This document shows, in pieces, positions 1-15,669 of a stretch of 64,000 bases of DNA. The stretch is from the NCBI GenBank assembly GCA_013387205.1, contig WARV01000002.1, forward strand, positions 3,341 through 67,340, written 5' to 3'. A program made the position numbers and the translations under genes. Position 1 is the stretch's first letter. Each line of letters starts with the position of its first letter. A model generated the notes under the pieces. The model worked only from the letters and a program-made list of their open reading frames with translations, ran no database searches and was not told the origin of the DNA. This DNA comes from Patescibacteria group bacterium. Lineage in GTDB: Bacteria; Patescibacteriota; Doudnabacteria; UBA920.

Positions 1-832
1 AGCGTTAATCGACCGCGCGGGAGTTACGACCAGAAAGTGCGTCATTAGTTTTCCCAACAGCGCAGTTTTCACTTCTGTCATTGAAATGCCGAGGATGAAC
101 CCTAAAGAACTGGGTTCGGCTGTGGAATTCGAAGCAAAAAAATATGTTCCGCTGGCTCTTTCTGATATCGACTTGTCCTGGACGATTGTCTCGGAAAATG
201 ACCACAATAGCCCCAATGTAAAAGTCCTTTTAACCGCTGTTCCAAAGCAAATCACCCAAAATTACATGAGGGTTTTCTCCTTAGCCGGCCTTGATCCGCA
301 AGTGGGGGAAATTGAGGCCCTGGCCTTAATCCGCGCCCTGATAGGCAACGTACCCATAAATTGTGTTATAATAGATATAGGCGCAAAGTGTACCGGATTG
401 AATATTATAGAAAACGGATTTTTGCGGCTGTCGAGGAACCTGAATATCGGCGGTGATACCATAACGAATAAAATCGCCCAATCCTTAAACATCAGCGAAT
501 TCCGAGCTGAGCAGTTTAAAAAAGACTTCGGCGTAAGCGGCGGAACCTTTATTCCCGATGCCATCAAACCGGTACTCAATATCATAAAGAATGAAGTCAG
601 GCAGCTGCTGACAATCTACCAATCGCAGAATGTTAATGTGGACAAGCTGATTATAGTCGGCGGCGGCTCGAACCTTCCCGGTATTACCAGTTTTTTTGAA
701 GATTTGAAATTATCAATTGAAGTAGGAGATCCTTTAAGAGCTATAGGATATAGCCAGAGTTTGGCTCCCGTACTTAAGCGTTACGCTTCCAGCCTGCCCA
801 TTGCCATTGGGCTGGGTTTGAGGAAAGAATAG
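1..832 (+). CDS. pilM: Type IV pilus assembly protein PilM, 5'-partial (frame is open to base 2, so the gene starts upstream of the window)
   Basis: Actin-like ATPase C-terminal region; first gene of a pilM-N-O-B-T-C-pilin operon; no in-frame stop between base 2 and the ATG at 86. Confidence 0.7.
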   Translation, partial: ALIDRAGVTTRKCVISFPNSAVFTSVIEMPRMNPKELGSAVEFEAKKYVPLALSDIDLSWTIVSENDHNSPNVKVLLTAVPKQITQNYMRVFSLAGLDPQVGEIEALALIRALIGNVPINCVIIDIGAKCTGLNIIENGFLRLSRNLNIGGDTITNKIAQSLNISEFRAEQFKKDFGVSGGTFIPDAIKPVLNIIKNEVRQLLTIYQSQNVNVDKLIIVGGGSNLPGITSFFEDLKLSIEVGDPLRAIGYSQSLAPVLKRYASSLPIAIGLGLRKE

Positions 833-835
833 AAA

Positions 836-931
836 TAAAATGACAAAAATTAAAAAAATGACAAAATTGACATAAATAATGAACCTAATAATTTTTGTTC
901 ATTTTTGTCAATTATGTCATTTATGTCAATA
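836..931. repeat. Family-M dyad word-array repeat (3x ATGACAAAA then 3x TTTTGTCAT-like), copy 1, immediately upstream of pilN
   Basis: Homologous copies at 4341-4437, 16163-16258 and a half copy at 53503-53541. Confidence 0.7.
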
Positions 932-1524
932 AACTCGTGGCCCAGATAAACTTATTAAAACAAAAATCCAGCAGCTTAGCATCTTTTGACATTGTCCCTT
1001 CCATTTTAGTGAAGGTTTTTGCCGGTGCGTTAATTGCCCTGGTGGTTTATTACGGCTGGATTTATATCCGGATAAACAAGACTAATGCGGAAATTGCCTC
1101 AATCCAAGAACAGATAGCCCAGGGACGAAAGGATGTGGTTAATACCAAAGAGAGGAATGAGTTGTTAACCAGGCAAGCCCAGCTAAAGGAATTGAATGGG
1201 GTATTGGGCAAGCACGCTTACTGGTCGCAGATATTTCCGGAAATTGCCAGGGTTACCTTAAAAACCGCCAAATATTCGGACATTAAAGCTTCTGATGAAG
1301 GCGATTTTTCCCTTTCAGTGGAAGTCCCGAACATAAGCGACTTTGACAAATATCTGCAGGTATTCGATAACCCGAAATTTAACGCTAATTTCAGCGACTT
1401 GAGGGTATCCGGCTACCATAAATCGCAGGATTCAGAAGAAAATATGGCTAATATCAAGTTTGACGTTAAAATGAAATACAATTCTTCAATTTTAAATTAC
1501 AATCCTGCAACAACCCAAAATTAA
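895..1524 (+). CDS. pilN: PilN-like pilus assembly protein (one N-terminal TM helix then coiled coil). The true start is probably the GTG near 937, because the first ~14 codons lie inside an intergenic repeat
   Basis: Size, single TM segment, coiled-coil region, position after pilM. Confidence 0.55.
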   Translation: MFIFVNYVIYVNKLVAQINLLKQKSSSLASFDIVPSILVKVFAGALIALVVYYGWIYIRINKTNAEIASIQEQIAQGRKDVVNTKERNELLTRQAQLKELNGVLGKHAYWSQIFPEIARVTLKTAKYSDIKASDEGDFSLSVEVPNISDFDKYLQVFDNPKFNANFSDLRVSGYHKSQDSEENMANIKFDVKMKYNSSILNYNPATTQN

Positions 1525-1536
1525 TAACTTTTTTAA

Positions 1537-2160
1537 ATGGCAATAAGTATTCCGCAAATCCATACTCCAGTAAGAAGCAGTCTGCCCCAAAAGGCCTCTG
1601 TTCGCTATTCGATGATTGAGGTTGTTTTGCTAATCGTGGTCATTGGGCTGTTTTATTGGTTCATTGCCAAGCCGAAAATTGCGGAACTATCCGTCCAGCA
1701 AGCGAAACTGGAAAGTGTGCAAAGCGAGCAGCAGGCATTGGCCGGCAACTTAAAAAAACTTAAAGGGTTAGTTGCGCAGCTGAAATCCAGCCCTGATAAA
1801 GTAAAGCTTCTCGATGAAGCCATGCCTTTGCACGGAAAAACGACCGACGTGGAAACGTTAATCGATTATTTGGCAAAATCCTCCGGAGTGTCCATAGCTG
1901 ATATTTCCGCAACCACGAAGAATGATTTGGTGGCAGCAGGAAATAAAGAGGTGCTTAAGGACCCTTATGCGGTAAAAAGGACTTTGCAAAAAATCACCGC
2001 GGAAGCCAATGTGATGGGCACATACGACCAATTGGTGTCATTTATGAAAAAACTCGAGCAAAACGGGAGAGTGTTGAATGCCAATGCCATGGAATTAAGG
2101 ACTGGGGACGAGGGGCAATTGAATTTAAGGCTAACCATAGAAACGTATTTTTATGAATAA
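1537..2160 (+). CDS. pilO: PilO-like pilus assembly protein
   Basis: N-terminal TM segment + coiled coil; position after pilN; its 3' end overlaps the next ORF by 8 nt. Confidence 0.5.
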   Translation: MAISIPQIHTPVRSSLPQKASVRYSMIEVVLLIVVIGLFYWFIAKPKIAELSVQQAKLESVQSEQQALAGNLKKLKGLVAQLKSSPDKVKLLDEAMPLHGKTTDVETLIDYLAKSSGVSIADISATTKNDLVAAGNKEVLKDPYAVKRTLQKITAEANVMGTYDQLVSFMKKLEQNGRVLNANAMELRTGDEGQLNLRLTIETYFYE

Positions 2161-2494
2161 AAAACAGATAATACAAACTATTGTCATTGTGGGAGCCTTT
2201 GGGGCAAGCGGGTATGTTTTGTATAGCGGCCTTTACAGCAAAAAACCTACTCCGATTGTGCCAGGGGCATTGACTGAAAGCGTAGCCGGACTGGCTCCGA
2301 CTAAGGCTCCGGAAATTTCCATAGATAAAATTTTGCCTTACGGCGACAGTTTGGATTTTGACAAAGTCCTGAAAAAACAAAACCAGCAATACGGAGTCAT
2401 TGATTACCCAAAGCTCGATCCGAATTCGGAAGTGGGCATATCAGAGCCTCAATTAATGAAAGTCATTCCACCTAAGCAAGTGCAAAAAAAATGA
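2153..2494 (+). CDS. Small membrane-anchored protein (possible PilP-like accessory protein)
   Basis: N-terminal hydrophobic helix; translationally coupled to pilO. Confidence 0.3.
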   Translation: MNKKQIIQTIVIVGAFGASGYVLYSGLYSKKPTPIVPGALTESVAGLAPTKAPEISIDKILPYGDSLDFDKVLKKQNQQYGVIDYPKLDPNSEVGISEPQLMKVIPPKQVQKK

Positions 2495-2592
2495 AACGTT
2501 GCAGCTCGGGTATGGTTTAAAATGACAAGCGTGCAATTTATCATACCAACCCTGCAGCAGGGTTGGTATGTTCATCTCTACAATATTAGCTT

Positions 2593-4341
2593 ATGAATAA
2601 TCCTGTAAAAACAAATGATTCCAAGAGTTTTGACCAGTTTTTGGTAGATAACGGTTTTGTCGCGCAGCAAATAATCCAGGAAGCCTTAGAACAGCAAAAG
2701 AAAAGCGGGCAATCCTTAGGGCAAGTTTTGATAAATAACAAGATTCTGGAAGAAGAAGATTTGACCAAAGCAAAGGCCGCGTTTTTTAATATTCCGTATG
2801 TGGATTTGAGGAAGATCCATGTTTCGCCCATGGTTTTGGCGTTGATACCGAAAGAGTCGATGAACTTTTACAATTTTGTCCCGTTCGACTTGAAAGACAA
2901 AACTTTGAAAGTCGCCATAACCGACCCGACTAACCTTTCCGCTTTGGAGGCGCTGGAATTTTTGGGCCAAAAACAAAACTTGCAAGTCCAGTTATACCTG
3001 GCTTCAGACACTTCGGTGGGGATTGTGGTCGGTAAAAAGGGCAACCTGAAAATGGTGGTCGGCGAAGCATTGAAGGATATCCAGACAAAAGAGGAAAAAG
3101 AGAAAAAGCCGGTCATTACCGAGCAGGAAACAAAGCCTGCGGTTTTGGAAGAAGCCCCGATAATCAAAATTGTGGACGTTATTTTAGCCAATGCAATTGA
3201 AGGCAATGCTTCCGATATCCATATTGAGCCTTCGGAAAAAGACGTCAGGGTAAGGTACCGCATTGACGGTATTTTGCATACGTCCTTAATGCTTCCGAAA
3301 AATATCCAAAGCGCCATTGTTACCAGAATAAAAATATTATCCAATTTGAAAATTGACGAATCCCGCCTTCCCCAGGACGGGCGTTTCCATGTAGAGGTAG
3401 GCAAAAAATCCGTTGACTTGCGCGTATCCATACTGCCTTTGATTTACGGGGAAAAAACCGTTATGCGTATTTTGGATAAGAGCGGCAGCGTGCCGACTTT
3501 GGAGCAGCTTGGCATAAGGGGCAGGGCTGCGACCTGGGTGAAAGAAAATATTAAAAAGACACACGGTATATTCCTTATTACCGGACCTACGGGAAGCGGA
3601 AAATCCACCACTTTGTATTCCATCTTGTCAATTTTGAACACCGCGACCGTTAACATTATTACCCTGGAAGACCCGGTGGAATATTTTATTGCAGGCGTGA
3701 ACCAAAGCCAGATTAACCCGGATATCGGCCTGACTTTCGCTTCGGGACTCAGGAGCATTTTGCGCCAGGACCCGAACATCGTCATGGTCGGTGAGGTTCG
3801 CGATAAGGAAACGGCGGAGATTGCCGTGCACGCCGCGTTGACCGGCCACTTGCTGTTTTCGACACTGCACACCAATAATGCCATTGGCGCCATGCCCCGC
3901 ATGATAGACATGGGCATTGAACCGTTCCTTTTAACCGCTTCAGTCAACGTGGTTATGGCCCAAAGGTTGGTCAGGAAAATTTGCCAGAACTGCAAAAAAG
4001 AAGTGCCTATCACCAAGGCAGTGGAGGATGAAATCAGGAAAAATTTGGTTGGAGTGCCTGAGGAGTATCTGGAAGGGGTTGACCAGAAAACAATTAAGAT
4101 TTATAAAGGCCAGGGTTGTGAGAAATGCGGGCACACGGGTTATGTCAGCAGGTTCGGAATTTTTGAGGTATTGCCTGTCACTACGCAAGTCCAGGATTTA
4201 ATTTTGACCAAAGCCTCAACCCATAAAGTTTATGAAGAAGCATCAAAGCTCGGTATGATTACCATGAAGCAGGACGGTATTGTCAAAGTCATCAGGGGAG
4301 AGACCACTATGGATGAAATTATCAGGGTAACAACAGAATAA
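2593..4341 (+). CDS. pilB: Type IV pilus assembly (extension) ATPase PilB/GspE
   Basis: Walker A GPTGSGKST; Asp/His boxes; tetracysteine motif CQNC...CEKCGHTGY; N-terminal GspE_N-like domain. Confidence 0.93.
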   Translation: MNNPVKTNDSKSFDQFLVDNGFVAQQIIQEALEQQKKSGQSLGQVLINNKILEEEDLTKAKAAFFNIPYVDLRKIHVSPMVLALIPKESMNFYNFVPFDLKDKTLKVAITDPTNLSALEALEFLGQKQNLQVQLYLASDTSVGIVVGKKGNLKMVVGEALKDIQTKEEKEKKPVITEQETKPAVLEEAPIIKIVDVILANAIEGNASDIHIEPSEKDVRVRYRIDGILHTSLMLPKNIQSAIVTRIKILSNLKIDESRLPQDGRFHVEVGKKSVDLRVSILPLIYGEKTVMRILDKSGSVPTLEQLGIRGRAATWVKENIKKTHGIFLITGPTGSGKSTTLYSILSILNTATVNIITLEDPVEYFIAGVNQSQINPDIGLTFASGLRSILRQDPNIVMVGEVRDKETAEIAVHAALTGHLLFSTLHTNNAIGAMPRMIDMGIEPFLLTASVNVVMAQRLVRKICQNCKKEVPITKAVEDEIRKNLVGVPEEYLEGVDQKTIKIYKGQGCEKCGHTGYVSRFGIFEVLPVTTQVQDLILTKASTHKVYEEASKLGMITMKQDGIVKVIRGETTMDEIIRVTTE

Positions 4342-4437
4342 AATTAATGACAAAAATTAAAAAAATAATAAAAATGACAAAAATATAATTGCATTTCACT
4401 TTTGTCATTTCCGTCGTTTTTGTCATTTTTGTTCATT
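4341..4437. repeat. Family-M dyad word-array repeat, copy 2, ends 6 nt before the ATG at 4444
   Basis: See 836-931. Confidence 0.7.
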
Positions 4438-4443
4438 TAACCT

Positions 4444-4872
4444 ATGTCTTACGTTTTCAAACAAAAATTAAAAATATCCGACATTGTCGACTTGCAGCGG
4501 AACCCTAAAATGATTGTTATTGCCGAGCCGGACGAATGCCGTAAGTCTCTATACGCCAGGCATTTGGGGGAAGGCGACTACCAGGTTGTTGTCTGCGGCC
4601 AGCTGGAAAATCTTCCTGAAATGCTTAGAGAAAATAAGCCGCACCTGCTTGTGTTAAGCTCTGAATTTCCAGGATATTTAAACCGGATCGTGTCTTATTT
4701 GCGAAAGATAAAATCGGTTTTTCCCGACTTGCATATTATTACTATAGGTTTCGATTTGCACGCCGACGTTATCAAGCAATTCATGCAGCACGGGGTGGTA
4801 AGCCATATAGACAGGAAATTCAGCCGGCCGCATGACTTAACGCATATCGTAAAAATAATACTATCAAATTAA
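4444..4872 (+). CDS. Receiver (REC)-like domain protein, apparently degenerate (phospho-acceptor position reads LLVLSS not LLVLD)
   Basis: CheY-like alternation of hydrophobic strands by eye (MIVIAEPDE..., HLLVLSSEFPG..., IITIGF); sits between pilB and pilT. Confidence 0.3.
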   Translation: MSYVFKQKLKISDIVDLQRNPKMIVIAEPDECRKSLYARHLGEGDYQVVVCGQLENLPEMLRENKPHLLVLSSEFPGYLNRIVSYLRKIKSVFPDLHIITIGFDLHADVIKQFMQHGVVSHIDRKFSRPHDLTHIVKIILSN

Positions 4873-5023
4873 CATAATCCGAATTTACCCTGTTAAATGC
4901 TGCTTCGCAGCATTCCGACATCTCGGAATATTTAACAGGGTTAATCCGAATATTATCCAAATGACCCGAATAGGGAACCGTTTGGGGCATTCGGATAAGA
5001 ATTCGGGGCATTAGGATTATAAA
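4873..5023. repeat. Family-P dyad repeat (ATAATCCGAAT...CCAAATGACCCGAATA...GGGGCATTCGGATAA..AATTCGGGG.ATTAGGATTATA), copy 1 with an extra internal 70-bp palindromic insert; ends 4 nt before the pilT ATG
   Basis: ~85% identical copies at 23202-23276 and 34753-34846. Confidence 0.75.
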
Positions 5024-5027
5024 TTTT

Positions 5028-6098
5028 ATGTACAAAGCCAGTGAATTAGAGTTAAATAAGCTTTTATCCATTGTCATGGAACGGGACGCTTCTGACTTGC
5101 ATTTAATTGTCGGGGAGCCGCCGGTTATTAGGGTTGATACCCAGCTTATAAGGCTCGACAACTACCAGGTCCTTAGCAACGAAGGCATTGCCGATTTGCT
5201 TAATGTTTTGCTGTCTCCGGCGCAAAAGAGCTTATTTGAAAAACAAATGCATGTGGATTTTTCTTACGCTTTTAAGGACAATATCAGGTTTAGAGTCAAC
5301 GCTTACAGGCAAAAAGGGGTTTTAGGCATAGCAATGAGGATTATTCCTAACCGCATTAAAACTTTGGACGAGTTAAGTTTACCGCCAATCCTGAAAAAAT
5401 TCACGGAAAAGAAGCAGGGTTTGGTTTTGGTGGTGGGACCCACGGGGCACGGGAAATCTACGGCATTAGCGTCAATGGTTAACGAGATCAATAAAACCAG
5501 GAATGAACACATATTAACCATTGAAGACCCGATTGAATTCGTTTTTACTCCGGACCAGTCGATTATCAGCCAAAGGGAGATTTTGCTGGATACGCCGGCT
5601 TTTGCCGATGCGCTTAAGGCTGCTTTACGCGAAGATATAAACGTCGTGCTTGTCGGTGAAATGAGGGATTTGGAATCCGTTTCAGCAGCCCTAACTATTG
5701 CCGAAACCGGGCATTTGGTTTTCGGGACACTGCATACTAACGATGCGGCCCAGAGCATTGACCGTATGGTGGACGTCTTTCCTTCCAGCCAGCAGCCGCA
5801 GATCAGGAGCCAGCTGGCTAGTGTATTGGTTGGAGTGGTTTCGCTAAGGCTTTTGCCGAAGATCGGCGGCGGAAGAGTCCCGTCTTATGAGATTATGGTG
5901 AGCAATCATGCGATAAGGAACGTAATCAGGGATAATAAAGTTTACGAAATCCCGAATATAATCCATACCAATTTGGATGAGGGAATGATTCCGATGGATA
6001 AGACTCTTGCGTTATTGGTTAAACAGGGGGCGGTTGAATTTGAAGTTGCCCAAAATTTTGTTGTTGATAACGAATTCTTTTTGTCATTAATCTCATAA
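5028..6098 (+). CDS. pilT: Twitching-motility (retraction) ATPase PilT
   Basis: Walker A GPTGHGKST; HLVFGTLHTN motif; ~350 aa. Confidence 0.92.
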   Translation: MYKASELELNKLLSIVMERDASDLHLIVGEPPVIRVDTQLIRLDNYQVLSNEGIADLLNVLLSPAQKSLFEKQMHVDFSYAFKDNIRFRVNAYRQKGVLGIAMRIIPNRIKTLDELSLPPILKKFTEKKQGLVLVVGPTGHGKSTALASMVNEINKTRNEHILTIEDPIEFVFTPDQSIISQREILLDTPAFADALKAALREDINVVLVGEMRDLESVSAALTIAETGHLVFGTLHTNDAAQSIDRMVDVFPSSQQPQIRSQLASVLVGVVSLRLLPKIGGGRVPSYEIMVSNHAIRNVIRDNKVYEIPNIIHTNLDEGMIPMDKTLALLVKQGAVEFEVAQNFVVDNEFFLSLIS

Positions 6099-6099
6099 A

Positions 6100-6215
6100 T
6101 TAACTAATCTACGAATCCATACTAATAATAACCAATGACAACTAATCCTTACTAAGATAGCATTAGTTGTCATTGGCAATATTCGTTACATTAGTTGATT
6201 AGTTAATCAAATTCG
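6100..6215. repeat. Dyad word-array element (ACTAAT/ATTAGT words; AACCAATGACAACTAAT / ATTAGTTGTCATTGG arms) immediately upstream of pilC
   Basis: Direct reading; a similar ACTAAT array is at 38055-38165 upstream of pyk. Confidence 0.55.
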
Positions 6216-6218
6216 TAT

Positions 6219-7427
6219 ATGAAATTTTTTTACAACGCCAGGAATAAAGACGGGCAAACCAAGTCAGGTATGGTGGTAGCCCAAGACCAGGCTAGGGCTG
6301 AACAGCTTTTGGCTGAAAATGGCCTGGTTATTACCAGCCTGGAAGCCAGGGAAGACGGTATTTTTGATAGGCTGAATCCTTTCGGTAAATCCGTTAAAAA
6401 TAAGGAACTGGTAATGTTCTCCCGGCAGCTGGCAACTTTAATTTCTGCCAGGGTGCCGATTATCCAATCCTTGAGAATTTTGGAAGGCCAGGTGTCAAAC
6501 AAATACCTTGTTACCGTAGTCCGGGATATTATTGCTTCCATAGAGAATGGGGAAAACTTGTCCTTGGCCATGTCCAAGCACGAAAAGATTTTCGGGAACG
6601 TTTATACCAGCCTGGTCCGGTCAGGTGAAGCGTCGGGTACTTTGGATAAGGCTTTAGTTTATCTGGCTGACCAACTGGAAAAAGATTATGAGCTCAAATC
6701 TAAAGTAAAAAGCTCCATGACTTATCCATTGTTCGTTCTTGGTGCGTTGGGTATTGTCGGAATTTTAATGTTTAAATTCGTTCTGCCCAAATTGACATCG
6801 GTTCTTGAAGAGCAGGGAGGTAGCCTGCCGGCAGTTTCCGTGGCTTTAATTTCTTTTACCAAGTTTTTCGATAAATTTTGGTGGTTGGTGCTGCTATGCA
6901 TAGCGGGCCTGGTTTTGGCGGTAAAATTTTACATTTCGACTGAAATGGGCAGGAACCTGTGGGATCGCATGAAAATCAAACTGCCTATTATCGGGGATAT
7001 TTTTGTAAAAATTTATTTGGCCAGGTTTGCCAGGAATTTATCAACTCTGGTTAAAGGCGGAATTCCCATTATTAAATCCATGCAGATTGTCAGTGAAATT
7101 ATAAATAATACCATTTATAGGGATATTGTCTTAGGCGCTGTTGACAGTATTCAAGAAGGAAGAAGTATTAGCGATGGCTTGGCCGGCCATCCGGCAGAGT
7201 TTCCTCCAATTGTTACCCAAATGGTTAAGGTTGGCGAGCAGACCGCCCAGCTTGATGACATCTTAGGCAAATTAGCGGTATTTTACGAAAAAGAAGTTGA
7301 TACCAAAGTTAGCACCTTAACAACTTTGATGGAACCGGTTATTATGATAATTTTGGGGCTTGGTGTCGGAGTTTTGGTTGCCGGGGTGTTAATGCCTATT
7401 TATAACATGGCGAGCACGTCGGGATAA
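6219..7427 (+). CDS. pilC: Type IV pilus inner-membrane platform protein PilC/GspF
   Basis: Two GspF repeats; 3 TM segments; ~400 aa. Confidence 0.9.
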   Translation: MKFFYNARNKDGQTKSGMVVAQDQARAEQLLAENGLVITSLEAREDGIFDRLNPFGKSVKNKELVMFSRQLATLISARVPIIQSLRILEGQVSNKYLVTVVRDIIASIENGENLSLAMSKHEKIFGNVYTSLVRSGEASGTLDKALVYLADQLEKDYELKSKVKSSMTYPLFVLGALGIVGILMFKFVLPKLTSVLEEQGGSLPAVSVALISFTKFFDKFWWLVLLCIAGLVLAVKFYISTEMGRNLWDRMKIKLPIIGDIFVKIYLARFARNLSTLVKGGIPIIKSMQIVSEIINNTIYRDIVLGAVDSIQEGRSISDGLAGHPAEFPPIVTQMVKVGEQTAQLDDILGKLAVFYEKEVDTKVSTLTTLMEPVIMIILGLGVGVLVAGVLMPIYNMASTSG

Positions 7428-7498
7428 TCAGGGTGACCTTCTTTTTTAGTTATAAAATACCTTCTTCAAGTCAGCTCTATGGATTGTGTATAACTTTT

Positions 7499-7528
7499 TT
7501 GCCTATTAAGCTTTAGAAGTGGTATAAT
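7499..7528 (+). promoter_or_regulatory. Candidate sigma70-type promoter for the major pilin gene (TTGCCT, 18-nt spacer, TATAAT)
   Basis: Sequence match to -35/-10 consensus ~70 nt before the pilin ATG. Confidence 0.35.
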
Positions 7529-7599
7529 TAATATGAAATAATCAATTGGGAAGAAATATTGTAAATATTCCTTCCTTAATTGTTAAAAACAGGCAAATA

Positions 7600-8088
7600 A
7601 TGCCTGTCCCAAGATTGGGGGTGAAAAAATTGCGAAACAAAAACAAAGGTTTTACCTTAATTGAATTGTTGGTGGTTATTGCCATTATTGGTCTTTTGGC
7701 CTCTGTGGTTCTCCTTGCTCTTAACTCGGCTCGAGCCAAGTCCAGGGATGCTAAGAGACTGGCAGACGTAAGGCAATTAGCCTCTGCGTTTGAATTGTAT
7801 TTTAATGACAATAATTCTTATCCGACCGCAGCTGCTCAGAACCCAATTCCTCAAGCCGGTTTTGGTCAGCCAAATATAGTTCCTAACTATATTGGCATGA
7901 TCCCAACCGCTCCAGGACCGCAAGACGGCACTTGTACTCAAAACGGCCAGGGAGGTAATGGATATTATTGGGTGTTAAACAATGCTGCAAGTACCTCAAA
8001 TAGCTACACATTAACGTTCTGTTTGGGTGATAATACTGGCGGTTACGGAAAAGGCCCTCATACCTTAACTCCTGCCGGTATTCAATAG
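7600..8088 (+). CDS. pilA: Type IV major pilin (prepilin with class III signal ...KNKG|FTLIELLVV, C-terminal disulfide-loop cysteines). The track ORF starts at 7546; the ATG at 7600 is more likely
   Basis: G|FTLIE prepilin motif with E+5; hydrophobic alpha1; two Cys flanking a C-terminal loop; strong terminator right after. Confidence 0.8.
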   Translation: MPVPRLGVKKLRNKNKGFTLIELLVVIAIIGLLASVVLLALNSARAKSRDAKRLADVRQLASAFELYFNDNNSYPTAAAQNPIPQAGFGQPNIVPNYIGMIPTAPGPQDGTCTQNGQGGNGYYWVLNNAASTSNSYTLTFCLGDNTGGYGKGPHTLTPAGIQ

Positions 8089-8104
8089 TCAAACTTTTTT
8101 GTTT

Positions 8105-8140
8105 AGTATATTCCCTCCCCTTTGGGGGAGGGAATATACT
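8105..8140 (+). terminator. Strong rho-independent terminator after the pilin gene (16-bp GC-containing stem, tetraloop)
   Basis: agtatattccctcccc tttg ggggagggaatatact. Confidence 0.8.
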
Positions 8141-8155
8141 GACTCTGCATGATAA

Positions 8156-8545
8156 ATGCTGCAAATACCAAAAAAAATTAAAATTTTACTAACAGTCCTT
8201 TGCTTGGCTGTTATTTTGTTATTGTGCCTGTTTTTTGGGTGGAACAGCGGCCGTAATATATCACAAGCTAGTTTAATTTATTCCAACGCGCAGCAGATAG
8301 CCGCAGGATTGGAAAATTTTTATAAGGACCAAAATAGGTTTCCTTCAGCTGCGGAATTTGCTAATAACAATTTTATGGGCGGATATTTTAATATTTTCCC
8401 TGTTCCCGAGGTTGTTGTAAAAAATTGCTCCGGCAATTTTGTATATAAAAGATTAAGCATAGCCAGTTACGAACTGGATTTTTGCCTGCCAGCAAGCGTA
8501 GGGGCTTTTCATTCCGGATGGAATTCGGCAATAATAAATAAATAA
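8156..8545 (+). CDS. Small membrane protein with a pseudopilin-like motif (FYKDQNRFP) but no canonical prepilin cleavage site
   Basis: N-terminal hydrophobic helix; Y-x-D-x-N-R-(F/Y)-P resembles the GspG-family motif. Confidence 0.3.
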   Translation: MLQIPKKIKILLTVLCLAVILLLCLFFGWNSGRNISQASLIYSNAQQIAAGLENFYKDQNRFPSAAEFANNNFMGGYFNIFPVPEVVVKNCSGNFVYKRLSIASYELDFCLPASVGAFHSGWNSAIINK

Positions 8546-8556
8546 TTTTAAGACTC

Positions 8557-10566
8557 ATGAATATACCAGAAAAATTTCGGCTGCCCTTTAGGGATGATAA
8601 GCCTTTTGGCGCATTAATTTTATTGTTTTTTGCCGTACCATTGCTGTTTTCTGTTATAACCTATGAAAATTTTGAAATTATTAAATACTCATTATGGCTG
8701 GGTTTTTTAGGGTTAACGCTTTTTCTATGGGTAAAAGAAAATTATTTACATAGTTCAGAAGGATCTAGCCAGCAAAAACCCGGACGTTTAATTAAGCTAA
8801 ACAAGCCTGCCTTTATACTTTTAGGGCTGTTTTTTCTTTTTGCGGTTATTAGCACGATATTTTCCGCTGACTTGCTAAACAGTTTAGTCGGTTTTTATTA
8901 TCGGTTTACCAACAGCCTTGTTTTTTACGGGTCGTGGGTTTTGCTGGTTGTTTTATTGGTTTTTATTTTAAACCGGCAAAAATTTGAGCTGCTGGCAAAG
9001 TTAGCGGTTTTTGATTCGTTATTAATATCTGTTGTCGGGATTTTCCAAAGTTTTGGCATCGGATACTATCAAGGTTCTGGTTCTGGCGGAATTATGATGA
9101 GGGCGCCCAGTCTTCTTGGCAACCCAAATTTTTCCACGTTATTTATTGTCGCAGCTTTGCCTTACGCCCTGTATTTTTTCTTAGGCAACAACAATTTAAA
9201 ATCAAAAATTTATTACGGCTGCACGATATTTTTTATAGTCTGGTCGCTGGCGATGATGTCAAGCAGGGGAGCCTGGCTGGGTTTTGCGGCTGCAATAGCA
9301 GTCTGGTTGGTAATATCTGCGGCTTACCGGTTAGGAAAAAAGTTTTGGCTGGCGCTGGTTTTACTGGGTGTTTCAGCGGTTATTACGGCAAATTTCTATT
9401 TTTTAATCAGGCCAAGCGATTCCGGGCAAGTCGTTGATTACACGGAGAGTAATGTGCAACTAAGGTTTTTTGTCTGGGACATCGCCAGACAAGGAATGCA
9501 AGTGCATCCGTGGACCGGTATAGGTTTGGGTAATTTTCATATATTATACTCACAGTTTCGAGACAAGCAACTGGCTAGCGAAGGAGTGTTTGACGATGCG
9601 CATAACTTATTTCTACAAATGGGGGCGACTGGCGGCCTGCCGATGGTTGCAAGTTTTTTAGCTTTAATTTTGGCGTCTTTTTTGCTGGGTTTGAAAAAAA
9701 TAGGCGAGGAAAAAGACGGCTTGGCTTTGGCAGGGATGTCTGGCTTATCCGCATTTGTTATAACAGCGGCTTTTACGCCGGTCAGTATCCCTTGCTACCT
9801 GCTTTTGGCCTTGATATTGGCAGGACTTGTGATGCCTTATAGTAAAGATTATTCCGTGCGTTTCCCTAAGGCCCTGGCTTTTGGAACAGGCCTTTTAGGA
9901 ATTTTTATGATTCTGGCAGGGGCTATGTTTTTCCTTTCTGAGCTGGTATTTTATTTCGGTGCAAAAGCTTATTTGCGCGGCGATTATCCCAAAGCATTAA
10001 GCTATAGCACTCTGGCCGCAAAATTAAATCCTACGGATCCGTTGTTTTATGTTTATCGCGCCGGCAGCGAGATTATGCTTAATAAAAATGATAAAATTAT
10101 AAGCGAAAGCATAAATAAAGTGGTTTCTTTGCATCCTAAAGAGAGCGGGAGGTTTGTTTCCGCTTCGAACTTGTATTTTATTTGGTACATGCATAGCCGT
10201 AATGGCGAACACCTTAATAGTGCCATCAGCGCTATGGCGGAAGCGCTTAAAAAGGATCCGTTGTATTCTGACAGGTACGGCAAAATGGCTTTGTATTATT
10301 ACCAGAAAGGTGATTTGGCTGCAGCCAGAATTTATAGTGAAATAAATTTAAAATATGACAACAAATTTTTACCCACCTGGATTTTACTCGCCAAAATTTA
10401 CCAGACGGAAGGAAAGAGAGACCAGGCAATTTATGCTTTGGAAAAAGCTTATAAGCTTCAGCCGACCTCGCCTCGCCTTAAGCTGGTATGGTATATGGCA
10501 AAACAAACACAGGACATTAAAAAGGTTCCCATAGATGTTGCTGTGGTACAAAACTCTTTAGAGTAA
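8557..10566 (+). CDS. O-antigen ligase (Wzy_C/WaaL)-like polytopic membrane protein with C-terminal TPR repeats; candidate pilin O-glycosyltransferase (TfpO/PglL-like)
   Basis: About 10-12 TM helices; SRGAWLG and HNLFLQMGATGG motifs typical of O-antigen ligase domain; TPR-like C-terminus; adjacent to pilin. Confidence 0.55.
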   Translation: MNIPEKFRLPFRDDKPFGALILLFFAVPLLFSVITYENFEIIKYSLWLGFLGLTLFLWVKENYLHSSEGSSQQKPGRLIKLNKPAFILLGLFFLFAVISTIFSADLLNSLVGFYYRFTNSLVFYGSWVLLVVLLVFILNRQKFELLAKLAVFDSLLISVVGIFQSFGIGYYQGSGSGGIMMRAPSLLGNPNFSTLFIVAALPYALYFFLGNNNLKSKIYYGCTIFFIVWSLAMMSSRGAWLGFAAAIAVWLVISAAYRLGKKFWLALVLLGVSAVITANFYFLIRPSDSGQVVDYTESNVQLRFFVWDIARQGMQVHPWTGIGLGNFHILYSQFRDKQLASEGVFDDAHNLFLQMGATGGLPMVASFLALILASFLLGLKKIGEEKDGLALAGMSGLSAFVITAAFTPVSIPCYLLLALILAGLVMPYSKDYSVRFPKALAFGTGLLGIFMILAGAMFFLSELVFYFGAKAYLRGDYPKALSYSTLAAKLNPTDPLFYVYRAGSEIMLNKNDKIISESINKVVSLHPKESGRFVSASNLYFIWYMHSRNGEHLNSAISAMAEALKKDPLYSDRYGKMALYYYQKGDLAAARIYSEINLKYDNKFLPTWILLAKIYQTEGKRDQAIYALEKAYKLQPTSPRLKLVWYMAKQTQDIKKVPIDVAVVQNSLE

Positions 10567-10576
10567 GCGGTGATTT

Positions 10577-11380
10577 ATGGAAAACATTCTCGCAATTTTT
10601 ATAATTTTCAGCTTTGGCTGCATAATTGGCAGTTTTTTAAACGTGGTCATACTTCGTTTGCCGCAGGAAAAAACATTGTCCGGGCGTTCGGCCTGCCCTT
10701 CTTGCGGCCATGTTTTGTCTCCTTTTGAATTGGTACCGTTATTCAGCTTCGTTTTTTTGCTGGGAAAGTGCAGAAATTGCAGGAAAAGAATTTCCTGGAG
10801 GTATTTTTTAATTGAACTGTTCACAGGACTTATGTTTTTGTCTGCATGGCTGATATTTGGGCATAATAATGTTTTGGAAGCCCTGTTTCTCATTAAATCC
10901 TTGTTGCTCATTTCCATATTTATTGTGGTTTTCATAATAGACTTTGAACATTACTTAATTTTGGATAAGGTGGTGTTTCCATCAATTATAATAATTACTG
11001 TTTTAAATTTTGCCATTTCCGCAATCCAGGGAAATCCGCTTAGTATAAATGCGATTTTTATAAGGGGCATTTTAGGGGCAATACTTGCCGCGCTGCCTTT
11101 TTTTGCCATTTGGTATTTTTCAAAAGGCTTATGGATGGGTTTTGGGGATGTTAAGTTGGCTTTATTGTTAGGTGCTGCGTTTGGTGGGGCCTTGGCGGCT
11201 GCCAATATAATGCTGGCAATATTTTTGGGAGGGCTGGTATCTATTTTGCTTATGGCCTTTAGGCATAAAACTTTAAATAGCAAGGTTCCTTTTGGAACAT
11301 TTTTAAGCATCGCCGGCATCGCCACTATCTTTTTCGGCGAAAGAATTTTGAATTGGTATTTAAGGCTTTTGGGTTTTTAG
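10577..11380 (+). CDS. pilD: Prepilin peptidase PilD (A24 family)
   Basis: N-terminal CPSCGH...CRNCRK zinc motif; polytopic; catalytic Asp-containing regions. Confidence 0.88.
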   Translation: MENILAIFIIFSFGCIIGSFLNVVILRLPQEKTLSGRSACPSCGHVLSPFELVPLFSFVFLLGKCRNCRKRISWRYFLIELFTGLMFLSAWLIFGHNNVLEALFLIKSLLLISIFIVVFIIDFEHYLILDKVVFPSIIIITVLNFAISAIQGNPLSINAIFIRGILGAILAALPFFAIWYFSKGLWMGFGDVKLALLLGAAFGGALAAANIMLAIFLGGLVSILLMAFRHKTLNSKVPFGTFLSIAGIATIFFGERILNWYLRLLGF

Positions 11381-11591
11381 CAAAAATAACGCGAATGACG
11401 CGTTAATCGTTATTTGTCGGCGCAGCGCGTATCGGTTAGGGTCTGGCGATAGGCGTTTCCCTTAACGCTATTACCGCTGCTGTATATCGTAATTACGCTA
11501 TGGCTGATTTCGCTCCGCCAGCTGGCGGATTTCGCATTTTCTACACTGTTGTATAAAAACCCCCTCTTGGCTATACTATATATGTAAATAT

Positions 11592-12329
11592 ATGAGGCTG
11601 ATGAAACCAAAGATAAATCAAAAAAATAGTATTTACGGTAACGGCTTCACCCTCATTGAGATGCTGGTGGTTATTTCGATTATGGGCGTGATGCTTTCGG
11701 TATTTTTAATTGACTTAAACGGGCAAAAAACCAACCGAAACTTAAAAATTGCCCAAAACGAAATGGTGACAAATGTCCGAAAAATCCAAAGTTACACCCT
11801 GTCATCCAGGGGTTTTGGAGAGGCTAAGACCGTTTTGTATTATATTTTAAAATTTGACCTGTCACATCCGACCGAATATTACATACAGGCCATGTACCAG
11901 GACAGTTCAAATACCTGGAAGCTTATAAATGTGGAGACTGTCAAGTTGCCGGTGGGTATAAGGCTGGCTGCCAGCGGCCCTATTTCCATTACCCCTCCTC
12001 CCGGCCTGACCCTGTCGTCTTTAAGTCCGGATTCCTGCGCGCTGGTGGCGTTTAAAAACCCTTTTGCAAAAACTTACATTGAAGGCATAAATTATTCGGA
12101 TAGCGGAGATGGCAACGGGGACGGAAAAGGTGATTGTGAACTTTCCGCTTTTCCGATGATTTCGCCAAATGATAACCACAAAAAAATTATAAATTTTATC
12201 ACTAACACCAATAACTATCCGGTTAGCACAGATACCATAATTGTCATAAAACTCACTGATGAAAAAAACTCTGTTGCCCCCAAAACTATAACCATAAATG
12301 GTATTTCGGGATTAGTCAGTTTTAATTAA
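11592..12329 (+). CDS. Minor pilin/pseudopilin (long leader then G|FTLIEMLVV)
   Basis: Class III signal motif with E+5 and hydrophobic helix. Confidence 0.7.
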   Translation: MRLMKPKINQKNSIYGNGFTLIEMLVVISIMGVMLSVFLIDLNGQKTNRNLKIAQNEMVTNVRKIQSYTLSSRGFGEAKTVLYYILKFDLSHPTEYYIQAMYQDSSNTWKLINVETVKLPVGIRLAASGPISITPPPGLTLSSLSPDSCALVAFKNPFAKTYIEGINYSDSGDGNGDGKGDCELSAFPMISPNDNHKKIINFITNTNNYPVSTDTIIVIKLTDEKNSVAPKTITINGISGLVSFN

Positions 12330-12336
12330 CCAAATA

Positions 12337-13068
12337 ATGCACAAACAACTCGAAAACAGAAACGAAATACAAAAATTACCGGCATTTTTTCGAAATTCGG
12401 AGAAAGGGCAAACTTTAATCGAAACCATGGCCGCTGTTTTCATTTTGGTCATGGGTATTACTGCGGCGGTCGGGTTGGCTATTTACGCGTTTTCGACTTC
12501 AACAAACGTGACAAAGCAAATTATCGCAAACGGGCTGGCCAGGGAGGGTATTGAAGCCATTAAAACAATGAGAGATACCAACTGGCTTAAGGCCGCCTTA
12601 GCCACAAATTGCTATAATTACCAATTTGGTACCAGTGACGCTTCGTGTTATCCTGCCTGGCTGACTTCCAAATATGACATAGATCCGGGCGCAGGCTTAA
12701 ATGGTACGACCTTCATTTTGCAGCCTGACCCGACAAATCCTGATTTTTGGGTTCCTGCAAAATTAGCGGTAGGCGATTATAAGTTCGGCCTGAATATGAA
12801 TACAAACGTACAATCAGCAGGCTTTAAGGGTTTTTATTACCATCCAAGCCCTGCTGTCCAAGATGGTGACTCCGCTTATTACCGGAAAATCGTACTTAAA
12901 GAAGATGCCACGCAGCCATATAATACCAATGTCGGGCCGAAGCTTATTGTTAAGTCCCAAGTCTGGTGGACTGACAAGAAATGCCCGAGAGTGAAAGATT
13001 ACGACTTGGCTAATAACACTTGCAGGCTGGAGCTGACCATGTTTTTGACCAATTGGAAGAACTATTAA
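12337..13068 (+). CDS. Minor pilin/pseudopilin (G|QTLIETMAAV)
   Basis: Prepilin motif; hydrophobic alpha1. Confidence 0.65.
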   Translation: MHKQLENRNEIQKLPAFFRNSEKGQTLIETMAAVFILVMGITAAVGLAIYAFSTSTNVTKQIIANGLAREGIEAIKTMRDTNWLKAALATNCYNYQFGTSDASCYPAWLTSKYDIDPGAGLNGTTFILQPDPTNPDFWVPAKLAVGDYKFGLNMNTNVQSAGFKGFYYHPSPAVQDGDSAYYRKIVLKEDATQPYNTNVGPKLIVKSQVWWTDKKCPRVKDYDLANNTCRLELTMFLTNWKNY

Positions 13069-13112
13069 CCGCGGATTTTCGCGGATAGCGACGCAGATTT
13101 AACGCGGAATAT

Positions 13113-14243
13113 ATGACAGACTTATTATATAAAGAAATAACTTACGATATTAGAGGAGCTTGTTTTGACGTTTGGAAAGCCTTTGCAGGAGCTTTTAAAG
13201 AGAAGGTTGTGGAAAGGGCTATGGTTATAGAATTAAAAAAAAGAAATAGGAAAGTTGAAACACAAAAAAGAATTCCGATTTTTTACGGCAATGAAAATGT
13301 CGGTTATTATATACCCGATGCCATTATTGATGATTCGGTGTTGGTGGAAATAAAAACAAAAGAATTTATAACATCCCAGGATTACGATCAGTTTTGGAAA
13401 TATTTAAAAGGTTCAGAATATAAGGTGGGTTTATTAATAAATTTTGGACCAAAAGAATTGGAGTTCAAAAGAGTGGTTTACGATAATGCCAGAGAAAAGG
13501 TGTTCGCGTCGATTCCGCGTGGTAATCCGCGTCGTTCCGCGGAACAGGGTTTTACACTAATGGAAATTATCGTGGCTACCACGATATTTGCCATTGTAAG
13601 CACAGCCATGATGGCATTGTTTAATTACACGTTGATCATAAACAGGAAAAGCGATGCTTTGCGCCAGGCGACCCAGGGGATGAGGAATACTATTGAATTC
13701 CTGACTAAAGAGATTAGGAACGGCAAAATAGATTATGGGGTGGAAAAAGGGATTAAGCCGGAAAATCCGTCTGTCGGACCTTGCGCAATACCTGTGTTTA
13801 CCGGAACGCCGCCGGCTTCTTATACTGATGTGCAGCCTACTTACGTCAGCGAAAATAACAGGCTTGGGCTTACGAATTCCGAAGGTGATAGGGAGTGTAT
13901 ATATTTGGCTTCAGGCCCCGGAGCTGGAACTTATGTGGGAGCGGCATTTAAGAGTGATGCTATAAATAATCCAAATCCTTCATTGGTATTGGAAAAACTG
14001 AATTCCACTGACCAACCTAATACCATAAAAGAAGTTTTAAACCCCAAAAATGTCAGGATTGACCAGTTGAAGTTTTTTGTCCGGCCGCTTAAAGACCCCT
14101 ATACTTCTTTGGGGGGGTATGAAAAAGTACAGCCTTTCGTGACAATGAATATCGCTTTTGTCGCTAAGCTTCCTACGGGGGAAGAGGTTCCCATTTATTA
14201 CCAGACCACGGTCTCAACTAATAAATACGACATCCCGAATTAA
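13113..14243 (+). CDS. Chimeric ORF: N-terminal GxxExxY-family domain (PD-(D/E)xK-like, ~125 aa) fused in frame to a prepilin (..AEQG|FTLMEIIVA). The pilin part may start independently at the GTG near 13497
   Basis: N-terminal part matches the GxxExxY family (IPIFY, YIPDAIIDD, LVEIKT, GLLINFG); C-terminal part has the prepilin motif and hydrophobic helix. Confidence 0.6.
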   Translation: MTDLLYKEITYDIRGACFDVWKAFAGAFKEKVVERAMVIELKKRNRKVETQKRIPIFYGNENVGYYIPDAIIDDSVLVEIKTKEFITSQDYDQFWKYLKGSEYKVGLLINFGPKELEFKRVVYDNAREKVFASIPRGNPRRSAEQGFTLMEIIVATTIFAIVSTAMMALFNYTLIINRKSDALRQATQGMRNTIEFLTKEIRNGKIDYGVEKGIKPENPSVGPCAIPVFTGTPPASYTDVQPTYVSENNRLGLTNSEGDRECIYLASGPGAGTYVGAAFKSDAINNPNPSLVLEKLNSTDQPNTIKEVLNPKNVRIDQLKFFVRPLKDPYTSLGGYEKVQPFVTMNIAFVAKLPTGEEVPIYYQTTVSTNKYDIPN

Positions 14244-14264
14244 GCAAGTTTTTAAGACCCAAAA

Positions 14265-15593
14265 ATGTTAAAAGACGCCAAAGAAAAACTTAAAAAAACC
14301 CTCTTCCAGGCAAGCAGCCAGCAAGGCGTTACTTTGCTTTTGGCAATTTTGGTTTTGTCCGCAATTTTAGCGATAAGTTTCAGCGTCGCGACCATTTTGT
14401 TCGTGGAAATTAGGACTTCCGGGGACCTTATTAGGACGGAAAATTCCTTGTATGCCGCGGAGTCCGTTGCCGAAGAAAACGTTTTTGTGGTTAAGAGAGA
14501 TATTCCGGAATGTTCAGCAACCCAAACAACTTATTGTTATACTGCCGGATCCGGAGGGTACACCTCTGCCATAGGCAATAACCAGCTTACCAGCGTAGCT
14601 TTGCCTAACAACCCTTCTATAAAAGTAAAAATTACTTCTGGATCGGTATTTTCCCAAACCGACAACACGTTCAGATTTTTTGATCCTACTGATCCCATTG
14701 GCGGAAGTGACTTTGGGAAATTTACTATCTCATACATTAATACAGGAAACGTCACCCCAACTGACAAACTTAACGTTTATGTTTGCCAGTTTGACCCTAC
14801 TTTTGGCGTGGATGATACTGGTGCCACAGCTAATACTTATAGGACCGCGGCTTGTTCTTACACTGGCGATAACCAGTCCGGTTATTGGATTCCTCCAATA
14901 GTGCAGCAGTTGGCGCCTGGGGCAACGCAGTCATGGAGTTTAGATCCGTCTAAACAGCAGCAATTATTTTTGGAAAATTTGTCAGGGAAAGACATATACG
15001 CGGAGATTGACACGTTTGCCGCTGACCAGGTAACAGCTAAAGGGCTGCCTACGTTCGGGGAAAAATATTTTAATATCGATTCGGCAAACTCCGGCCTTAA
15101 CAGAAGGTTGCAGGTCAGGATTCCTTTGTCATCAGGAAATAATAATGTCGTGACAAACCTCGCGCAAGGAAAAACAGCGACGGAAAGCAGCGTAGCCTTC
15201 GGCGCTACTGCTGACAGGGCAGTTGATGGTAATACCGACGGCAGTTGGAGCAATAATTCCGTCACTCATACCAATTTTGACGCCAATGCCTGGTGGAATG
15301 TGGATTTAGGAGCTTCGGGGACAATCAATACAATATCTATTTGGAACCGAATGGACTGCTGTTCTTCCCGTTTGGGGGATTACTGGGTTTTTGTTTCCGA
15401 TACGCCTTTTAATCCTTCTGACACTCCGGCGACATTGCAGTCAAGGGCGGGAACCTGGAGCAGCCACCAAACTTCCGCTCCAAACCCTTCCACCAACATC
15501 AGCGTAGGCGGGGCAAAGGGGCGGTATGTGCGGGTGCAGTTGTCAGGAACGGATTATCTAAGTTTGGCTGAAGTGCAAGTCTTTGGTTATTGA
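14265..15593 (+). CDS. PilX-like minor pilin with a C-terminal discoidin/F5-8 type C (lectin-like) domain; candidate pilus tip adhesin
   Basis: N-terminus QQG|VTLLLAILVL resembles PilX_N; C-terminus AVDGNTDGSW...WWNVDLG...NRMDCC..RL matches the galactose-binding-like/discoidin signature. Confidence 0.5.
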   Translation: MLKDAKEKLKKTLFQASSQQGVTLLLAILVLSAILAISFSVATILFVEIRTSGDLIRTENSLYAAESVAEENVFVVKRDIPECSATQTTYCYTAGSGGYTSAIGNNQLTSVALPNNPSIKVKITSGSVFSQTDNTFRFFDPTDPIGGSDFGKFTISYINTGNVTPTDKLNVYVCQFDPTFGVDDTGATANTYRTAACSYTGDNQSGYWIPPIVQQLAPGATQSWSLDPSKQQQLFLENLSGKDIYAEIDTFAADQVTAKGLPTFGEKYFNIDSANSGLNRRLQVRIPLSSGNNNVVTNLAQGKTATESSVAFGATADRAVDGNTDGSWSNNSVTHTNFDANAWWNVDLGASGTINTISIWNRMDCCSSRLGDYWVFVSDTPFNPSDTPATLQSRAGTWSSHQTSAPNPSTNISVGGAKGRYVRVQLSGTDYLSLAEVQVFGY

Positions 15594-15660: not shown

Positions 15661-15669
15661 AAGTAAAAA

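Follow-up and report, generated by a model that had tools for sequence, protein, structure and literature searches.

A type IV pilus locus of a Doudnabacteria-lineage bacterium with an F-type lectin on a candidate tip subunit and a conserved pilin-adjacent Wzy_C/TPR protein

Modular pilins that bear lectins are already known, as are Wzy_C enzymes linked to pilins, and a type IV pilus locus is in itself ordinary for bacteria of the candidate phyla radiation (CPR). In Streptococcus sanguinis, the modular pilins PilB and PilC carry a vWA module and a concanavalin-A-like lectin module, respectively, and a modular-pilin survey shows carbohydrate-binding modules to be common on pilins, CPR included (PMC8179133, PMC9934059). 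The C-terminal domains of the Saccharibacteria TM7x proteins PilX1 and PilX2 are lectin-like, a PilD signal is predicted for neither protein, and the pilX2 mutant shows a host-binding defect (PMC11623550, PMC12206443). For pilin glycosylation, the closest described enzymes are TfpO/PilO (P. aeruginosa 1244), PglL, PglL-ComP (Neisseria, Acinetobacter) and TfpM (Moraxellaceae), which are Wzy_C proteins with conserved Arg/Arg/His residues, encoded downstream of the major pilin in the same orientation (PMC3643930, PMC9829042). WaaL shares these residues (R215/R288/H338, compared with R224/R298/H349 in PglL), and pilin adjacency was the criterion that identified PglL homologs (PMC3643930). Here we analyze a 64,000-nt stretch of DNA, hereafter the window, from a Patescibacteria group bacterium (Doudnabacteria; UBA920; WARV01000002.1, positions 3,341-67,340, forward strand). 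Its type IV pilus locus encodes a 442-aa protein, in the position of a fourth minor pilin, that ends in an F-type lectin module, and a Wzy_C/TPR protein whose gene lies between those of the major pilin and the prepilin peptidase. Our overall reading, to which we give a probability of roughly 0.6, is of a secretin-less pilus with a lectin-bearing tip subunit and pilus-linked glycosyl transfer by the Wzy_C/TPR protein.

Positions 1-15593 of the window hold 16 genes, all on the + strand, which open reading frame (ORF) listing and translation assign to one type IV pilus locus (Table 1). With the Pfam gathering score as the threshold for domain calls, and NCBIfam cutoffs used likewise, PilB, PilC, PilD and the major pilin, which has a class III signal, all exceed their gathering scores, and PilT is present. 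A single Wzy_C/TPR protein used as the query recovered no relative; a profile of 43 Wzy_C/TPR orthologs was needed, and it yielded 64 related loci from species-representative genomes, nearly all of them metagenome-assembled genomes titled Candidatus Doudnabacteria or generic Patescibacteria/'Saccharibacteria'. In each locus a script called the ORFs, which were then searched with the window proteins. The shared order is pilM-N-O-o113-pilB-REC-pilT-pilC-pilin-o129-WzyC/TPR-pilD-mp1-mp2-mp3-carrier-ligA, where REC is a receiver-like gene, mp1 to mp3 encode minor prepilins, o113 and o129 encode small membrane proteins, and the carrier is the N-terminal part of the 442-aa protein. It was found in ~50/64 loci, the remainder being short or cut contigs, with o129 downstream rather than upstream of the Wzy_C/TPR gene in ~10. 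Because the order recurs in so many loci of other species, the arrangement is not a chance juxtaposition. This is the main type IV pilus locus of a Candidatus Doudnabacteria-lineage CPR bacterium. Identity between the window and the related loci is 69-83% for PilB, PilT and PilC, 61-80% for the major pilin, 26-42% for the Wzy_C/TPR protein and ~34-40% for the carrier.

A scan of ORFs over the full 64 kb of the window found no Secretin domain, in agreement with the absence of PilQ reported in an earlier note on this DNA, so within that scope the locus lacks the hallmark of a diderm type IVa pilus (T4aP). PilQ is generally absent from CPR bacteria, which are described as lacking a Gram-negative envelope (PMC6744442), and its absence is therefore the expected CPR state and not a peculiarity of this locus; a Doudnabacteria-lineage CPR bacterium is single-membraned and would therefore not need a secretin.

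The identity of the C-terminal module is among the parts of the reading that are shown here, along with the gene set, its synteny and the modularity of the protein family. The earlier note had described a C-terminal discoidin/F5-8-C carbohydrate-binding domain, and matches to such folds came from Pfam (F5_F8_type_C PF00754, 39.8 bits, cutoff 28.2; F5_F8_type_C_2 PF22633, 68.9 bits, cutoff 27.8), from phmmer searches of the PDB (striped-bass FBP32 3cqo, 6.8e-29; S. mitis lectinolysin lectin domain 3le0, 1.7e-22; S. pneumoniae SP2159 fucose-binding module 2j1r, 6.1e-18; eel agglutinin 1k12, 1.7e-12) and from Foldseek on an AlphaFold2 (AF2) model, which returned the same solved fucolectins with a probability of 1.00. 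'Discoidin' is right at the superfamily level, 'F-type lectin' being the precise term. A regular expression located the fucose motif (His-x26-Arg-x-Asp-x4-Arg; H335-x26-R362-x-D364-CC-x2-R369), which aligns with the corresponding residues of FBP32, and the Cys365-Cys366 pair adjoins the motif residues. Judged by its sequence, then, the module is an F-type lectin whose canonical fucose-binding triad is intact. It has sequence homology, the H-x26-R-x-D-x4-R motif and the adjacent Cys-Cys in common with the described F-type lectins (1K12, FBP32 3CQO, SP2159 2J1R, lectinolysin 3LE0), and it differs in being fused to a pilin-like carrier, whereas theirs is the setting of a toxin, a glycosidase or tandem lectin repeats. 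Near homologs (~70% identity) occur as tandem domains in hundreds of large multi-repeat proteins, some named Bryobacteraceae or Pyrinomonadaceae; in many of these non-CPR domains the triad His has given way to Thr, Ala or Tyr, and for that reason the intact H335/R362/R369 triad is informative. The soil-bacterial repeats point to a large, partly non-canonical F-type-lectin-like subfamily. As a source of the pilus lectin, we considered and rejected the discoidin domain of a GH18 protein elsewhere in the window (26% identity, no triad).

An exhaustive HMMER search gave 295 representatives of the carrier family, 250-900 aa long and named only 'hypothetical protein' in their sources. Among the 80 long members, the C-terminal extensions are mainly Laminin_G_3/ConA-like (24), DUF2341 (19) and F5_F8_type_C (15), with SpaA-like (5), Big_1 (5), Malectin (4) and PA14 (3) modules rarer. 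At the syntenic position itself, 27 of 48 complete orthologs are carrier-only and ~21 are extended, and the F-type motif is limited to the window and two related loci (L001, L011). L029 and L030, the nearest relatives of the window, have a rare PDDEXK insertion (see below) in common with it, and the modules differ among all three: in L029 the module is a weak discoidin-like domain that lacks the triad, and in L030 it is DUF2341 plus a ConA-like module. Modules, most of them carbohydrate-binding, are exchanged on a conserved carrier at a fixed position in the locus.

The carrier begins with a basic leader, Gly21 and ~25 hydrophobic residues, with Val at +1 and Leu at +5 (QQG/VTLLLAILVLS; here and below a slash marks the cleavage site). 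Both G21 (-1) and L26 (+5; Glu, or E5, in ordinary pilins) are >90% conserved in the family, and E48, R50, S52 and D54 of the helix are conserved. In the AF2 carrier model, built with 65 carrier-only relatives (mean predicted local distance difference test score, pLDDT, 89.6), the helix runs to residue 77 and is followed by an 11-strand beta-sandwich of ~210 residues. The gene fills the fourth slot after three E5-bearing minor prepilins, in an order kept in ~50 loci (G/FTLIE, G/QTLIE, G/FTLME, G/VTLLL), giving the core minor-pilin set of four consecutive genes of which the last lacks Glu5.

GspK/PilX-type tip subunits of type II secretion systems (T2SS) and T4aP also lack E5. Like GspK (T2SS) and PilX (Pseudomonas T4aP), the 442-aa protein is encoded by the last and largest of four consecutive minor (pseudo)pilin genes, after GspH/I/J-like subunits; unlike them, it has no PilX_N match and no alpha-domain insertion, and its lectin is appended to the subunit, in contrast to the separate adhesin PilY1. 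GspK is also discussed in the modular-pilin literature drawn on here (PMC8179133). By analogy with these subunits, the 442-aa protein would be a pilin that is incorporated into the filament, presumably after cleavage by PilD, and located at the tip, and the lectin with its intact triad, the fourth, GspK/PilX-like slot and the mostly carbohydrate-binding modules of the family together support the candidate pilus-tip adhesin that the earlier note had thought plausible.

With the S. sanguinis modular pilins, the protein has in common a pilin-type N-terminal carrier joined to a ligand-binding module that is not specific to pilus biology, a monoderm-type pilus with PilT and a predicted display at the tip. 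Its extra C-terminal module likewise follows a low-confidence linker. It differs in that the carrier has neither the IPR012902/N_methyl motif nor E5, and in its ~210-residue beta-sandwich without a PDB match; because it lacks the motif and E5, the published InterPro screen would have missed this carrier. Carbohydrate-binding modules (PF13385, PA14) dominate both the survey set and the carrier family. The F-type lectin is not among the architectures quoted from the survey. The TM7x proteins have jelly-roll and RCC1 beta-propeller modules in place of an F-type lectin with a sequence-level match to fucolectins; descriptions of the TM7x loci mention no Wzy_C gene, and glycosylation there is known only as the output of a sequence-based predictor.

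The second component, the Wzy_C/TPR protein, belongs to the O-antigen-ligase superfamily, with a Wzy_C match above threshold. The earlier note had likened its position to that of TfpO/PglL, and its gene does come after the major pilin and before pilD in each of the 64 related loci that is long enough, co-oriented with the pilin gene; in the window, 68 nt plus one small gene separate the two. R237, R303 and H349 are invariant in the 43 orthologs and resemble the PglL/WaaL residues by order and spacing, not by direct alignment; the only PDB relative of the membrane domain is WaaL (7tpg, E 2.8e-14). A crude hydropathy count gives ~13 transmembrane (TM) segments, which would place the ~200-residue TPR tail outside the cell. 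This tail and the extra predicted TM segment that would put it there set the protein apart from TfpO, PglL and TfpM, as do its obligatory pilin-like neighbour, a CPR host without lipopolysaccharide (LPS), and the lack of a match to O-oligosaccharyltransferase-specific models. TfpO pilin substrates end in Ser, while the major pilin here ends ...TLTPAGIQ. The neighbour, o129, adjoins the Wzy_C/TPR gene on one side or the other in 60+ loci, always, and cross-matches the major pilin in many of them (phmmer), which suggests that it is a pilin mimic or a partner of the enzyme. Since pilin adjacency is what identified the PglL homologs (PMC3643930), O-glycosylation of the pilin is the best reading of the Wzy_C/TPR protein, one that we hold tentatively and at a little short of even odds.

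On these grounds we can sketch how the system might work. By analogy with GspH-I-J-K and FimU-PilV-W-X, the three minor pilins with E5 would join the fourth subunit, which lacks it, in a priming complex that ends at the pilus tip. Occupying the GspK/PilX slot, the fourth subunit would cap the filament with its lectin facing outward, and the lectin would bind L-fucose-type (6-deoxy-hexose) glycans on the surface of a partner or host cell, onto which PilT retraction would pull the small cell. Swapping the lectin module could shift target specificity between species. On the outer side of the membrane, the Wzy_C/TPR protein and membrane-anchored o129 would work on the pilus system, the former most probably moving a lipid-linked glycan onto the major pilin, in which a PTAPxPxD loop and the C-terminal H-T-L-T-P-A-G-I-Q are candidate acceptor segments.

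Several findings weigh against this proposal. PilX_N did not match residues 1-100 or 1-294 of the 442-aa protein even at an E-value of 10, N_methyl and TIGR02532 did not match the protein either, and it has no pilin-family Pfam domain. The 'PilX-type N-terminus' of the earlier note is thus not borne out by hidden Markov models, and we reject membership of the carrier in the PilX_N family, whose model matches 1/80 long carrier-family members (1.9e-05). Foldseek comparison of the beta-sandwich with the PDB gave weak jelly-roll matches only and no pilin (best E 3e-3; Ena3A, PirA, viral capsids), and a profile search of the carrier against PDB sequences gave no match. The GspH/I/J labels of the minor prepilins come from sub-threshold matches dominated by the N-terminal helix, and the fourth subunit has no such match. 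AF2 confidence is low for lectin residues 292-338 in the full-length model, and the preference for L-fucose-type sugars is a prediction from the motif. For the Wzy_C/TPR protein, models specific to PglL or TfpO were unmatched, with IctB (52 bits, cutoff 366) and PEP_O_lig_1 (33 bits, cutoff 188) the best of NCBIfam; no initiating phosphoglycosyl transferase or flippase for a lipid-linked glycan was found in the 64 kb window; and we know of no pilin O-oligosaccharyltransferase with a TPR domain.

The alternative that survives best concerns the acceptor. The Wzy_C/TPR protein could be a ligase or polymerase for a cell-envelope glycopolymer, acting on a lipid or cell-wall acceptor and not on pilin, and could share the locus as both serve the cell surface. 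Wzy_C is common to WaaL ligases, Wzy polymerases and O-oligosaccharyltransferases, and the solved relative found is a WaaL; the unmatched PglL and TfpO models, with IctB and an exosortase-associated putative ligase as the best sub-threshold matches, fit this account as well. We nevertheless think it rather unlikely, given a position between pilin and pilD that stays constant while the protein itself has diverged to 26-42% identity, the constant pairing with a pilin-like membrane protein, polysaccharide-synthesis genes that were not found in or beside the locus, and a CPR envelope generally described as not Gram-negative (PMC6744442). LPS genes were likewise not found in the 64 kb window.

As to the lectin, its ligands could instead be environmental or self glycans, such as the glycosylated pili of sister cells, biofilm, or plant and algal polysaccharides, and its role aggregation or surface attachment in place of episymbiosis. 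Free-living soil bacteria (Bryobacteraceae, Pyrinomonadaceae) have the ~70% identical F-type-lectin-like repeats in abundance in their large secreted proteins, a possible glycosylation enzyme is encoded in the same locus, and the lineage has no known host. All cultivated Patescibacteria are episymbionts, however, with type IV pili that contribute to host binding (PMC12206443), and the diversity of modules among close relatives suits target-specific recognition better than a generic matrix ligand, so we regard this account as unlikely.

Weakest is the proposal that the 442-aa protein is no pilus subunit at all but a surface lectin anchored by an uncleaved TM helix, a short-range adhesin independent of the filament: the missing N_methyl and PilX_N matches, Val and Leu where +1 and +5 are otherwise Phe/Met and Glu, and a globular part unlike any solved pilin fold speak for it, but the gene is always fourth after three canonical minor prepilins, a conserved Gly and a basic leader precede the hydrophobic stretch, the 58-residue helix with its conserved E48, R50, S52 and D54 far exceeds a simple TM anchor, and a missing E5 is equally a trait of GspK/PilX-type tip subunits, which together make it improbable. 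TM7x bears on both sides, in that PilX1/2 likewise lack a predicted PilD signal, yet deletion of pilX2 resembles deletion of the major pilin in its host-binding defect and alters pilus number and length (PMC11623550).

Three things are new in the reading of a lectin-tipped, possibly glycosylated pilus: a putative pilus subunit bears an F-type lectin; its carrier belongs to a family that lacks annotation and has an unmatched fold, with modules that vary like cassettes at a single syntenic site; and the pilin, the pilin-like protein and the Wzy_C/TPR protein recur as a trio across the lineage. CPR bacteria account for a large part of bacterial diversity and are mostly uncultivated, and their means of finding and holding partner cells are largely unknown. 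The locus offers a concrete adhesin candidate, with a predicted ligand class (fucose-type sugars), three key residues and orthologs that differ in the lectin module, and these ortholog modules could serve to predict or compare host range from metagenomes. The trio is a defined glycosylation candidate in a lineage without demonstrated protein glycosylation. A bolder joint reading, which we consider doubtful, would see the F-type, ConA-like, malectin and PA14 modules as an exchangeable receptor-binding cassette on a lineage-specific tip carrier, setting the range of partner cells much as phage receptor-binding proteins do, and would add the first dedicated CPR protein O-glycosylation system, in which a Wzy_C enzyme docks its substrate through an external TPR domain and works with a membrane-anchored pilin mimic. 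Current models stand, and the ideas of the modular pilin and of the pilin-adjacent O-oligosaccharyltransferase are extended to a new lineage with new parts.

Table 1. Coordinates of features in the window, with the evidence for each
Feature	Position	Strand	Evidence or remark
Carrier, residues 1-290 of the 442-aa protein	14265..15134	+	QQG/VTLLLAIL signal without E5, 58-residue helix, beta-sandwich
F-type lectin domain, residues 296-442 (147 residues)	15150..15593	+	F5_F8_type_C, F5_F8_type_C_2; fucolectin matches; H335, R362, D364, C365-C366, R369
Wzy_C membrane protein (O-antigen-ligase superfamily) with C-terminal TPR	8557..10566	+	Wzy_C 1.4e-19, 70.8 bits (cutoff 31.7); TPR_2
Pilin-like 129-aa membrane protein (o129)	8156..8545	+	TM anchor; YFY.DQ.R.P ... 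C ... FCLP ... GWN; no G/FTLIE motif
Major pilin	7546..8088	+	N_methyl 2e-10, TIGR02532; likely start ATG 7600; cleavage KNKG/FTLIELLVV
Minor prepilin 1 (GspH/FimU-like; G/FTLIEM)	11592..12329	+	N_methyl 4.9e-06; GspH 7.6e-09, sub-threshold; 52 loci
Minor prepilin 2 (PilV/GspI-like; G/QTLIET)	12337..13068	+	N_methyl 1e-04; TIGR02523 PilV 4.1e-05, sub-threshold; 51 loci
PD-(D/E)XK_3 / GxxExxY domain	13113..13499	+	PDDEXK_3 7.1e-28, TIGR04256 1.4e-27; in frame with minor prepilin 3
Minor prepilin 3 (GspJ/PilW-like; G/FTLMEI)	13500..14243	+	N_methyl 2.5e-06, residues 142-166 of the fused ORF; GspJ 2.4e-04 and 2.8e-03, sub-threshold
pilM, 3' part	2..832	+	PilM_2 (Pfam) 5.8e-38, profile positions 55-339 of 340; ORF open at the 5' end of the window
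PilN-like single-TM protein	895..1524	+	Position and conservation in relatives; no Pfam or NCBIfam match
pilO	1537..2160	+	PilO (Pfam) 1.7e-06, 28.6 bits (cutoff 22)
113-aa TM protein (o113) downstream of pilO	2153..2494	+	No family match; same position in 33 related loci
pilB, extension ATPase	2593..4341	+	T2SSE (Pfam) 1.1e-129 and MshEN 9.7e-14; 75-82% identity in related loci
Receiver-like protein (142 aa) between pilB and pilT	4444..4872	+	Response_reg 2.3e-4, below gathering score
pilT, retraction ATPase, 356 aa	5028..6098	+	T2SSE (Pfam) 9.6e-40, no MshEN; AIRNVIRD motif in translation; ~80% identity in related loci
pilC, platform	6219..7427	+	T2SSF (Pfam) 1.6e-60, two copies
pilD, prepilin peptidase / N-methyltransferase	10577..11380	+	A24_N_bact 2.5e-30, Peptidase_A24 2.1e-10
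LysM-domain protein	15670-16071	-	1.9e-16; convergent, just downstream of the pilus locus
NAD-dependent DNA ligase (ligA)	16292-18316		Downstream of the pilus locus
GH18 multidomain protein, 819 aa, secreted-type	23728-26187		GH18 (chitinase-like), He_PIG, discoidin, fn3, Big_7
Diversity-generating retroelement	51974-54283		RVT_1 6e-23; template and variable repeats

The rest of the locus is conventional in outline. The earlier note had called it complete and contiguous, with PilM/N/O, PilB, PilT, PilC, PilD, a major pilin and four further prepilins; all of these lie side by side as described, with two corrections, that pilM is cut by the 5' edge of the window (orthologs in related loci are ~340-370 aa), so that completeness holds only up to it, and that PilN has no support from profile models. 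Within the PilM/PilN/PilO subcomplex, PilM and PilO are thus matched by model (PilM_2, PilO) and the PilN candidate is placed by position and synteny, its gene being kept between pilM and pilO in 46 related loci at a median identity of 40%. Three conserved genes go beyond that description: those for o113, which is possibly a PilP analogue, for the receiver-like protein and for o129. The receiver-like gene is conserved in 42 related loci, and the phospho-acceptor position reads LVLSSEF, apparently with Ser; the product may be a pseudo-receiver that regulates the pilus motors. The major pilin is found in 61 loci and has two strongly conserved segments that contain Thr or Ser, PTAPxPxD and a C-terminal FCLG..TGGY..G.H.TL[TS]P.GIQ that ends at the stop codon. 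A scan for promoters and terminators gave weak consensus matches only, which we treat as hints and not as evidence; among them are a promoter-like site with an extended -10 upstream of the major pilin (7499-7528) and a hairpin directly 3' of pilD (11387-11405). Separately, in three related loci (L034, L039, L047) the Wzy_C/TPR gene is preceded by two major-pilin paralogs in tandem, and L039 has an extra divergent pilin downstream of ligA.

Orthologs of minor prepilin 3 are 200-290 aa long in ~50 loci. In the window, a PDDEXK_3 domain displaces the native leader of this prepilin and has CGCGGA-type repeats on its flanks. The fusion is limited to the window (13113-14243), L029 (14355-15662) and L030 (14486-15637) and is missing from the other related loci with prepilin 3. 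We considered a multi-copy mobile element and rejected it, as no further copy occurs in the window or the 64 loci and the same site is occupied in three genomes only; one ancestral insertion is more likely. From the sequence of the fused ORF, the prepilin might be made either from an internal start (GTG 13500) or by PilD removal of a 145-residue 'leader'.

Outside the pilus locus, an ORF on the + strand that overlaps the LysM gene (15590-16093) has no matches and is probably spurious. The 23S rRNA gene (19494-23131) is ~700 nt longer than the Rfam model and is unlinked, with no 16S gene upstream, and a 5S gene follows at 23451-23566; the extra length implies one or more insertions or introns, and a long 23S with no upstream 16S fits what is typical of CPR genomes. 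Within the retroelement, the variable repeat (52552-52644) is part of the target ORF (51974-52648), which encodes 224 aa and has no match in Pfam, the template repeat lies at 52998-53090 and the reverse transcriptase at 53531-54283, and 16/16 mismatches between the repeats fall at template adenines. Finally, positions 56776-63072 encode a 2098-aa polymorphic-toxin-like protein with SpvB, FG-GAP and RHS repeats, and a 163-aa ORF just 3' of it (63074-63565) could encode its immunity or partner protein.

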